Position numbers and translations under genes: made by a program
NCBI GenBank assembly: GCA_951406725.2
Contig: OX597833.1
Location: forward strand, 57,040,001-57,104,000
Direction: 5' to 3'
Source of the DNA: Octopus vulgaris
Taxonomy: Eukaryota
Length of the DNA: 64,000 nt
In this document: in pieces, positions 5,891-39,090 of the stretch
Position numbering within the stretch: the stretch's first letter is position 1
Layout of the letters: every line of letters starts with the position of its first letter
Notes under the pieces: generated by a model
The model's database searches: none
Told to the model about the DNA's origin: nothing
Seen by the model: the letters and a program-made list of their open reading frames with translations, nothing else

Positions 5891-6276
5891 AAACTTACTT
5901 GGAAAAAGATGCATGGCGTTCGATCATATAATAATATATAAATACATGCATATATACAGACATATATGTACATACCTACATCTATATGTATATATACATG
6001 CATATATGGGTACAGGACATGAAAAAAACGTTGAACACAATGAGAAACGAAAACATAAAAACAAAAACATGGAAACGGACTTTTTTTCAAGTAACAAAAA
6101 ACAGAGTACAAGACATACAACACAAGGAATATTCCCCTTCTTCACTTGCCCCCGTTTCATCCGGCCCTACTGCAAATAGACATCCACAAGGTGGTAGCAA
6201 ATTGTGTCAGAAATAACAGCCAAATAGCACTCGATCCACAAACAATTCTCATTTCTCTATATATATTGAATATACA

Positions 6277-6507
6277 GGCGGTGAGCTGGCAGAACCGTTA
6301 GCACGCCGGGCGAAATGCGTAGCCGTTATTCGTCTGTCGATACGTTCCGAGTTCAAATTCCGCCGAGGTCGAATTTGCCTTTCATCCTTTCGGGGTCGAT
6401 AAATTAAGTAACAGTTACGCACTGGGGGTTGATGTAATCGACTTAATCCCTTTGACTGTCCTTGTTTGTCCCCTCTGTGTTTAGCCCCTTGTGGGTAGTA
6501 AAGAAAT
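6277..6507 (+). mobile_element. tRNA-derived SINE, family B
   Basis: Head GGCGGYGAGCTGGCAGAA, B box GAGTTCAAAT, central GTCGA..TTGCCTTTCATCCTTTCGGGGTCGATAAA and tail TTGTCCCCTCT..AGCCCCTTGTGGG..AAAGAAAT. TSD ATATATTGAATATACA on both sides. Confidence 0.9.
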
Positions 6508-6524
6508 ATATATTGAATATACAT

Positions 6525-10924: not shown

Positions 10925-11570
10925 AATCCCTTAACTGATGCAGCCAGTCGCTGGGTGTCACTCGAGACATTTTTTCATAGTCAGTCGTTGCCACTGGTCT
11001 CTCTTCTCTGACATTCGTAGCAAGTTCGCTGTGTTATGACCTGTCCAGTCCTTGATGTTGTCTAACCAAAATTTTCTCTGTCTGCCTCTCTTTTGCCCTC
11101 TCTCAACTATTCCCTGAAGAATGGTTTTGAACAGGGGAGTTTTGGCGGGATACATGACGGTACCAGGCAAGCTTCCGTCTATTTACCCGCGCAAGGAATG
11201 GTTTTGGCGGGATACATGACCGTACCAGGCAAGCTTTCGTCTATTTACCCGCGCAAGGAATGGTTTTGGCGGGATACATGACGGTACCAGGCAAGCTTTC
11301 GTCTGTTTACCCGCGCAAGGAATGGTTTTGGCGGGATTCATGACGGTACCAGGCAAGCTTTCGTCTTTTTATCCGCGCAAGGAATGGTTTTGGCGGGATA
11401 CATGACCGTACCAGGCAAGCTTTCGTCTATTTACCTGCGCAAGGAATGGTTTTGGCGGGATACATGACCGTACCAGGCAAGCTTTCGTCTTTTTACCCGC
11501 GCAAGGAAAGGTATTTCTTGACTTGCTGCCTGACAAAGCTGTTCATTTTGTGTTCTATCCTTTAACCCTC
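10925..11570 (-). mobile_element. RTE-clade LINE 3' fragment (second family) with an internal minisatellite
   Basis: Frameshifted RVKRRKLAWYGHV...KTILQGIVERGQKRGRQRKFWLDNIKDWTG, the typical RTE C-terminus. Confidence 0.8.
11141..11512. repeat. 62-bp minisatellite, ~6 copies
   Basis: TTTGGCGGGA recurs at 11141, 11203, 11265, 11327, 11389 and 11451. Confidence 0.95.
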
Positions 11571-14075: not shown

Positions 14076-14335
14076 GTCACTGCCTGGAATCGAACTCGGA
14101 ATCTTTGGGTTAGTAGCCTGTGCTCTTAACTCCAAGATTCCGAGTTCAATTCCAGGCAGTGACATTAATAATAATAATAACAACATCAAAAAATACCTTA
14201 GGAATGAGAACCCAGGTTCAAAATTTCCCCAAGACACCTGATGAAGGCTGGAGGGTATATCAGCTGAAACATAGTGTTAACAACAAACAAAATGAGGACA
14301 AATATCCGTCAAATATAAATAATGTAAATAATGAA
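14076..14335 (+). mobile_element. Retrozyme/Penelope-like non-autonomous element: inverted tRNA-like segment plus hammerhead
   Basis: 37-bp inverted arms (14076-14163) each contain a B box GAGTTC(G/A)ATTCC, followed by (TAA)n and a hammerhead motif at 14233-14278. Confidence 0.65.
14233..14278 (+). ncRNA. Minimal type I hammerhead ribozyme motif
   Basis: GACAC-CTGATGA-AGGCTG-GAGGGTATAT-CAGCT-GAAAC-ATA-GTGTT: stem I GACAC/GTGTT, perfect CUGAUGA and GAAA cores, stem II GCTG/CAGC. Stem III AC-AT is likely CpG-decayed from ACGT. Confidence 0.7.
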
Positions 14336-14852
14336 GAAAGTAATTTAGTTGTGTAATCCAGTTTATTCAAGAAAGACAAAACTTAAAAAGCATAAAAAGT
14401 GGACAACGATGTTACATTTCCACTACAGATTTTCATTTATTAAACAGATAGTATAGTAATGTTCTTAGATTAAGCTCTCTGCCAAAACATTTTCTTTTAT
14501 ATAAAAGACATAATAGAAAATAAAACAAAGCCTAAAATTATATCTGTTCTTCTGACCAAGAAAACTAGTTCAGTAGGAGATGAATAAATGAATAGGATTG
14601 GCCTCACTAATTCTCTTCTTGCTAAATTATAAATATTACTCTATATTTCTGTGTTTACTCTTTGTTCATTTTATTCTATTAATTGCTGGGAGTGTCAGAT
14701 GTTTGACCATTGACAGTATGATAATGAGTTCAGAATTTACAAGAGAGATTTTGAATAATGAAATCACAGAGAAACGAATATTTAACTTAATGAAATAAAC
14801 ATCAAAGAATCGTTGCTCCATGTAGAGTAACTTAAAGGTATTGCAAGCTCTA

Positions 14853-15080
14853 AGGCGGCGAGCTGGCAGAAACGTTAGCACACCGGGCGAAATGCTTAGC
14901 GGTATTTTGTCTGCTGCTACGTTCTGTGTTCAAATTCCACCAAGGTCGACTTTGCCTTTCATCCTTTCGGGGTCGATAAATTAAGTACCAATTACGCACT
15001 GGGGTTGATATAATTGACTTAATCCGTTTGTCTGTGCTTGTTTGTCCTCTCTGTGTTTGGCCCCTTCTGGGTAGTAAAAT
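14853..15080 (+). mobile_element. SINE family B
   Basis: Full-length copy with TSD AGGTATTGCAAGCTCT. Confidence 0.9.
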
Positions 15081-15685
15081 AGGTATTGCAAGCTCTTCTC
15101 CTGATGGTGATTGTGTATCTTCAGCAAGTTTCTCCAGATCACAAATGTTCACCACTTAGCTCTTGTATGCTATACCTGAGTGGGACAGTGAAAACTGAAT
15201 TAGCCTTCACCTACAGAAGGTTTTCAGCCGTGGTCTCTTGTCAACCACAACTATCTTGAATTGGTCTCATCTGCCAAAGCTATTTCTTTGGTGGTTTTCT
15301 TCAGTTAATAGAATATACATTTCTTATCACAAATATTTCTGATTGAATATGTGATGTTCATCACATCATTTTAATGTCCACTTTTCTCTGCCCTTTCTGT
15401 TTCCAAACAAGATAATATTTTTCCCTGGCTGAACTTGTTTTCACAGAAGATTGGAAATAAATGACACCATCTGTATGATGATGAGTTCCATTTACAACTA
15501 TTGTGTGATGTCAAGACGAGACATGCACATACGTACACACTCACACATCAAATTGCGACTGGCTTCCTTCAGTTTCCATGTACCAGATTCACTTAAAAGG
15601 CTTTAAGTGGGCTTGGAACTATAATAGAAGACATATGCCCAAGGGGCTGTGCAGTGGGACTGAACATGTAACCATATGGTTGGAA

Positions 15686-15915: not shown

Positions 15916-16091
15916 TACATATGGTTGGAAAGTGAACTTCTAAACCACACAGCCATGCCTGCACATATCACCAATTTGCAAGTTACAACGCACTAGCAAT
16001 ATGTATTTTTAACATGCAAATAACCATGTGATGCATGTTTCCTCTCCATGTATGGTTGGCTGTTTGATTCCTCATCAGGTTTTATTTTCAG

Positions 16092-39051: not shown

Positions 39052-39090
39052 GTCTGATGAACGGCAACGAGAAACTCAGAGTATATGTAT

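Follow-up and report, generated by a model that had tools for sequence, protein, structure and literature searches.

A Penelope/Poseidon-type terminal repeat that opens with a tRNA-derived head, seen through a probably dead, partly inverted fragment

In the Penelope-like element (PLE) PAc of the green anole, a hammerhead ribozyme overlaps the start of the open reading frame (ORF), and two start sites of reverse transcription define the tail (PMC11167929). The features of such minimal hammerheads have been described for metazoan PLEs (PMC4209133), and PLE insertions typically have inverted, 5'-truncated partners (PMC8557442). Retrozymes, by comparison, are tandem 150-450-bp repeats with mostly canonical hammerheads and abundant circular RNA, and the PLE-type minimal motifs have been set apart from them (PMC7229834). 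Among short elements with small-RNA-derived Pol III promoters, it has been argued that the autonomous partners of TRIMp3 must use Pol II (PMC10886601). How Penelope elements are transcribed and retain their promoters is poorly known.

We examined a stretch of 64 kb (the window), in which the family described here is represented by one copy, at 14076-14335. The first-pass annotation had read this copy as a retrozyme-like element, with a tRNA-derived foldback carrying B boxes in 37-bp arms around a 14-nt loop, and a minimal hammerhead about 70 nt downstream. Both structures are present. The arms (14076-14112 and 14127-14163) are complementary at 34 of 37 positions across a 14-nt spacer, a repeat search of the window stretches both of them to 42 nt at 88%, and the fold has z = -12.8 with dinucleotide shuffles as reference. 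Each arm contains a B-box-like motif (14086-14097 on the minus strand, 14142-14153 on the plus strand). The hammerhead-like motif (14233-14278) lies 69 nt past the right arm and consists of stem I (14233-37/14274-78), CUGAUGA (14238-44), stem II (14246-50/14261-65) and GAAA (14266-69). Rfam, the proposed check for the ribozyme, matched no hammerhead family at this locus and no tRNA family, ARAGORN called no tRNA there, and no target-site duplication was established for the copy. Reading the foldback as a miRNA hairpin was rejected, as the Rfam matches fell far under gathering scores. Aligned with the rest of its family, the locus resolves into the following features.

14076..14130, minus strand: head in inverted orientation, from +18 to +72, covering the anticodon arm, the T arm and a B box (14086-14097) but no A box; 52 of 55 letters are the family majority letters
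14127..14163, plus strand: head in forward orientation, from +36 to +72, including a B box (14142-14153) with one CpG change; 35 of 37 identical
14164..14194, plus strand: (AAT/AAC)n tract and short linker, its length highly variable between copies
14204..14334, plus strand: first ~43 codons of the Penelope reading frame, with its ATG at 14204-14206; the frame crosses the hammerhead
14233..14278, plus strand: minimal type I hammerhead of the pLTR, decayed at 14265, 14271 and 14273
14279..14334, plus strand: AC-rich end of the pLTR, which stops at the proximal of two 3'-end classes, so that the tail of about 30 nt is missing

The inverted and forward head copies share 4 nt of microhomology, and the copy as a whole begins at head +18, which leaves it without an A box. 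The feature is almost certainly a 5'-truncated, 5'-inverted fragment of a Penelope/Poseidon-type pLTR, so the earlier suggestion of a Penelope-mobilised insertion with an inverted 5' segment was sound. The window also holds abundant dispersed repeats in many copies (968-1374, 6276-6514 and 14850-15087), some of them SINE-like with tRNA-like boxes, and repeats such as these showed no match when compared with the family head. A unit of ~62 nt is repeated in tandem about six times at 11139-11515.

The window sequence has 4,502 first-look candidate loci in the 2.8-Gb genome. A 34-mer from the ribozyme core has 1,690 exact matches and a 34-letter head motif has 1,081, with zero for the reversed control in each case. 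The core count against its control indicates that the hammerhead motif is not a chance pattern, and it bears out the expectation of a multi-copy family. Long copies diverge from the column majority by a median of 5.5% (97 alignments, overlapping loci kept in), so the true copy number is likely to lie above the exact-match counts, of the order of ten thousand. The family looks old and inactive in this genome.

Several copies have endonuclease-coding sequence upstream. In 30 loci picked by the endonuclease-coding end, the tRNA-like head follows ~100 nt downstream in 25 and the hammerhead in 27. In 30 loci picked by the 5' part of the ORF, the hammerhead stands directly upstream in six, two of which also have the head (L146 and L149), and one of these two starts at the head itself. 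At another locus (L160) a unit of ~2.5-2.6 kb is partly repeated in tandem. In the column majority of 20 copies, a frame that starts just before the hammerhead stays open for 838 codons. Natural pieces of this ORF match the reverse transcriptase (RT) domain RVT_1; Pfam returned no endonuclease domain for them, and a Y..Y/CCHH pattern is visible by eye in the C-terminal region. Seven relatives (P0001-P0007) align along the whole protein, and one of them (P0006) has PF01541. P0001, the closest relative, is 57% identical overall and has in common with the family an N-terminus that reads through the ribozyme. By eye, the Zn-finger of the linker between RT and endonuclease is absent from the family and present in the control family L201. 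As in other PLEs, there are pLTRs at both ends, partial tandems, inverted 5'-truncated copies and a tail of 30-40 bp, and the 3' ends of 90 copies fall into two classes ~30 nt apart, one at +95 and the other spanning +117 to +131, counted from the core. Judged by these features, the family is an autonomous, protein-coding Penelope/Poseidon-type element with a predicted RT and GIY-YIG-type endonuclease. Its pLTR runs in the order tRNA-derived head, (AAT)n, hammerhead, tail.

This assignment replaces the proposal of a small non-coding family, since the sequence in question serves as pLTR to a protein-coding element. The retrozyme reading was rejected because the ORF is contiguous and overlapping and there are no tandem arrays; a search for tandem copies, suggested with that reading, found head-to-tail short tandems to be rare (one locus, seen twice, among 60). 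Nor is the head free-standing: of 30 loci selected by the head, 25 run on into hammerhead-side sequence and two are attached to the ORF. The last count does invite the idea of a separate, non-autonomous lineage of short copies, a Penelope-dependent SINE or retrozyme comparable to Sm-alpha and moving on its own short RNAs, since most head-bearing copies lack the ORF and retain the A box, B box, ribozyme and tail. We consider this highly improbable. At three sites compared in a small sample, the short copies have the same polymorphisms as the ORF-attached ones and no allele is diagnostic; the tandem arrays expected of such a lineage are absent; and PAc, as far as the consulted part of its description goes, needs RNA downstream of the RT start sites, which the short copies are missing (PMC11167929).

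Other retroelements came to light beside this family. Two further Penelope-like families (L201-L205, L208-L210 and L331-L334) have near-identical copies with frames that run unbroken for up to ~880 codons or more and are possibly still active; L201 carries a linker motif resembling a Zn-finger and is Neptune-type by eye. A young LINE family (L327 and relatives) has many intact RT frames of 949 codons genome-wide. Eighty metagenome contigs (L371-L450) bear animal-type Penelope elements with pLTR hammerheads, several of which have variant cores, and these contigs are probably host DNA. A search of viral contigs found nothing.

The family hammerhead has the core, the stems I and II and the palindromic, loopless stem III of a minimal type I motif. 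The first-pass annotation had proposed to look for core conservation and stem pairing, and both are present: the stems pair in 95% of cells (half of the rows being pattern-selected). The covariation that it also proposed is not seen within the family, where no compensatory change was found among 24 distinct copies, as expected of copies that decay neutrally. Between six PLE relatives, stem II varies in sequence and retains its pairing. Among 68 copies that were not selected by the ribozyme, the sole shared non-CpG core variant is at N7, a free position (19/68), and this variant is also a conservative coding change. In the window copy, stem III reads ACAU where the family has ACGU, which agrees with the CpG decay already proposed for this stem, but two other changes had been overlooked: the cleavage triplet is AUA in place of GUU, and the closing pair of stem II has gone from G-C to G-U. 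With three changes, the cleavage triplet among them, the window ribozyme is predicted to be inactive, and together with the missing A box they make the copy likely to be dead, an ordinary insertion. Two more CUGAUGA...GAAAC motifs with unclear stems lie in the window, at 39054-39085 on the plus strand and near 16078 on the minus strand, and are possibly decayed ends of other Penelope families or chance matches.

We asked how common the foldback is in the family. The junction seen in the window occurs in 25 of 30 loci that were selected with the window sequence, and in two of 90 and one of 30 unbiased loci. The higher figure is thus a product of the query, and on the unbiased count (3/120) the foldback was rejected as a functional family structure. 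The length of the inverted arm also varies from locus to locus. The foldback is an insertion by-product and not a feature of the family. The 4-nt overlap of the window arms coincides with the base of a head hairpin, which would fit a cDNA end that folded back and primed the second strand.

The head is colinear over its full length with a tRNA-Arg(TCG) gene of the host (L225), which at about two-thirds identity is the closest match among 30 tRNA loci examined, and the minus-strand arm of the window copy corresponds to the anticodon arm plus T arm, as had been noticed at first. Rfam and ARAGORN called no tRNA on the family head. The family majority keeps the A and B boxes intact and at the right spacing, and none of the six relatives with a locatable hammerhead has them. 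Copies of the family show one hallmark of tRNA-derived SINEs, a tRNA-like head with both boxes at the 5' end. The element may have acquired this head by its own template jumping.

The 5' ends of copies pile up at the edge of this head, at -7/-8. In 90 loci with 62 anchored heads, 43 heads extend to +9. The copy stops between -8 and +9 in 38 of the 43, one of which picks up again further upstream beyond a deletion; the remaining five continue, and no end falls between -9 and -23. In a second sample, which has three loci in common with the first, 21 of 24 heads end between -7 and +7. Both samples were selected by exact patterns and consist of the first matches listed on one contig (C1). Several of the ends adjoin unique flank rather than an inverted copy. 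We conclude that the element RNA probably starts at the 5' edge of the head.

The region from -14 to +10 forms a hairpin with a perfect part that stops at -7. The pile-up could therefore also have arisen where no transcript begins, as an effect of this hairpin on reverse transcription of longer RNAs from an upstream promoter. The modal end falls exactly where the perfect part of the hairpin ends, many of the -7 ends carry a short palindromic stub, a second hairpin (+17 to +40) gives the window-type junction, and in a related organism the loose ends at this place are head-to-head junctions. Stalling, however, would be expected near the hairpin base at +10, ends at -7 to +2 also adjoin unique flank or unrelated positions of inverted copies, and the first sample has the gap from -9 to -23 described above. 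We therefore hold it improbable that the hairpin accounts for the pile-up in place of a start, while snap-back at the hairpin could by itself make part of the peak, which counts against reading the whole of it as a start site. Two other observations concern this region: the join of 3' UTR and head (-14 to +10; e.g. L038 and L061) is an imperfect palindrome resembling the snap-back stubs at many 5' ends, and head +7 to +15 holds a two-codon upstream frame that overlaps the A box, with the ORF start as the next ATG downstream in the majority.

With an RNA that starts at the head, the question is which polymerase makes it. The sense strand of the 2,811-base majority, UTR included, contains 31 runs of four A and not a single TTTT (T4). 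Synonymous codon shuffles give P = 0.028 for this absence, and P = 0.006 with the Phe codons freed. Seven other retroelement families of the genome have 0.96-7.4 T4 per kb, none of them depleted, and T4 arises at normal rates in dead copies of the family itself. That shared subfamily variants never create T4 (0/73) was discarded as evidence, since by a rough estimate only about half of one such case is expected. Among 17 loosely clustered groups of related PLEs on metagenome contigs, four of ten stretches of at least 1.2 kb are likewise free of T4 and have no tRNA head, and one of these relatives (L380) has a T-rich pLTR. As relatives without a head also lack T4, the argument from T4 is weak: compatible with Pol III but unspecific.

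Transcription by Pol II is the other candidate. The same element would then be transcribed, like ordinary tandem Penelope elements, from a TATA-like motif located where the upstream ORF ends, and the head would be a passenger captured past the start. A TATAA overlaps the stop codon 34 nt before tRNA +1, ~27 nt before the edge at which 5' ends pile up, and is intact in 66 of 83 copies, although it may merely reflect the stop codon. Four of six relatives have TATA-like motifs 39-48 nt before the hammerhead (a seventh locus could not be matched), which makes a Pol II start at the same place possible. T4-free ORFs without a head, as noted, do exist. The RNA must also encode a protein of ~830 residues, and uncapped Pol III RNA is translated poorly. 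Promoters in pLTRs that drive the downstream copy of a tandem are a known mode (PMC6765202, in the part consulted). On the other hand, the A and B boxes are intact in a head that otherwise differs from the nearest tRNA examined at about one-third of its positions, the apparent start coincides with the one expected for Pol III, and the whole unit including its UTR is without T4. We regard Pol II transcription past a passenger head as rather unlikely, yet as a rival to be taken seriously. For Pol III as the source of the element RNA, the sequence leaves the chances about even. The fuller scenario, in which an autonomous coding Penelope captured a tRNA-derived promoter and its terminator-free RNA of ~2.9 kb was transcribed end to end by Pol III, can be put forward only tentatively.

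RNA-seq reads from ordinary libraries of a related organism, of which 6% of each of two runs was read, cover both strands equally and decay towards the 5' side as in DNA contigs. About two-thirds of the reads continue into unlike sequence, the depth step at the head is only ~2-fold, and a pile-up of starts at the head was sought in these reads and none was found. The reads fit copies embedded in host transcripts and give no sign of an RNA of the element's own.

We favour, at roughly 60%, the reading that the window copy is a probably dead, 5'-truncated and partly inverted pLTR insertion of an autonomous Penelope/Poseidon element whose RNA likely began at the 5' edge of the head. From the observed anatomy, copy number, link to RT and endonuclease coding sequence and pile-up of 5' ends, we infer the transcription start and the steps of reverse transcription as follows. 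Transcription would begin ~7 nt ahead of tRNA +1. The simplest driver would be Pol III acting on the internal A and B boxes, and the upstream TATA-like motif may assist. The ribozyme would cleave only as a dimer or with the help of protein. Reverse transcription would start within the first ~130-160 nt of the reading frame, as in PAc, and run off the RNA 5' end, yielding thousands of SINE-looking copies of ~270-300 nt, whereas starts at the downstream pLTR would yield the ORF-bearing copies. Some cDNA ends would fold back on the head hairpins and prime the second strand, which would produce head-to-head junctions and foldbacks of the window type.

What is new is a family pLTR that is headed by a tRNA-derived segment with A and B boxes, at which the 5' ends of copies pile up. 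We found no PLE with a tRNA-derived pLTR in the literature; Repbase, Dfam and SINEBase lay outside that search and may hold a prior annotation. The consulted part of an octopus repeat annotation (PMC13282606) does not mention hammerheads. A pLTR with an internal Pol III promoter would, if confirmed, be a new solution to promoter loss: each full copy would carry its promoter without a tandem, and SINE head and autonomous partner would be joined in one element. It would also contradict the expectation that autonomous retrotransposons use Pol II, as stated in the part of PMC10886601 consulted. Whichever polymerase is used, the ends of genomic copies map the likely RNA start and both classes of RT start from sequence alone, extending the in vitro result for PAc to an invertebrate. 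In annotation terms, thousands of apparent SINE or retrozyme copies are pieces of one PLE family. Octopus genomes contain the tRNA-Arg-related SINEs OR1 and OR2. The family resembles them in having a tRNA-Arg-like head in an octopus-like genome, a likeness drawn by name only, and its short copies may already be catalogued as a SINE.

Set against the described systems, as far as the parts of the cited sources that we drew on go, the family is closest in build to Penelope/Poseidon PLEs such as PAc. It shares with them a single RT plus GIY-YIG ORF, a pLTR hammerhead over the ORF start, and two 3'-end classes ~30 nt apart, at the first of which the window copy ends (PMC11167929), as well as inverted 5'-truncated copies (PMC8557442). 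Its hammerhead has the short helix I, the unpaired base 5' of stem II, the G10.1-C11.1 pair, the palindromic 15.2-16.2 and the absent loop III of metazoan PLE minimal hammerheads and shows no substantial difference from them, with a stem II of 5-6 bp (PMC4209133). It differs from PAc-type PLEs in that the pLTR opens with a tRNA-derived head with A and B boxes and (AAT)n, an arrangement found in none of the six relatives and not described in the consulted part of PMC11167929. Animal non-LTR retrozymes likewise have a type I hammerhead in a short repeated unit, but the motif here is minimal, the copies are dispersed and an ORF is contiguous (PMC7229834). The TRIMp3 elements Cassandra, Helenus and Ajax also carry a small-RNA-derived Pol III promoter in the terminal repeat, possibly from a SINE insertion; they are short non-autonomous LTR elements, whereas the head here belongs to an autonomous PLE (PMC10886601). 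In Schistosoma Sm-alpha, a Pol III-type promoter is followed by a hammerhead as it is here, but Sm-alpha is non-coding and tandem, while in our family the pair is the terminal repeat of a coding element and short tandems are rare (PMC6765202). If it does carry a Pol III promoter, a PLE end of this kind would be a possible source of promoter-plus-hammerhead repeats such as Sm-alpha.
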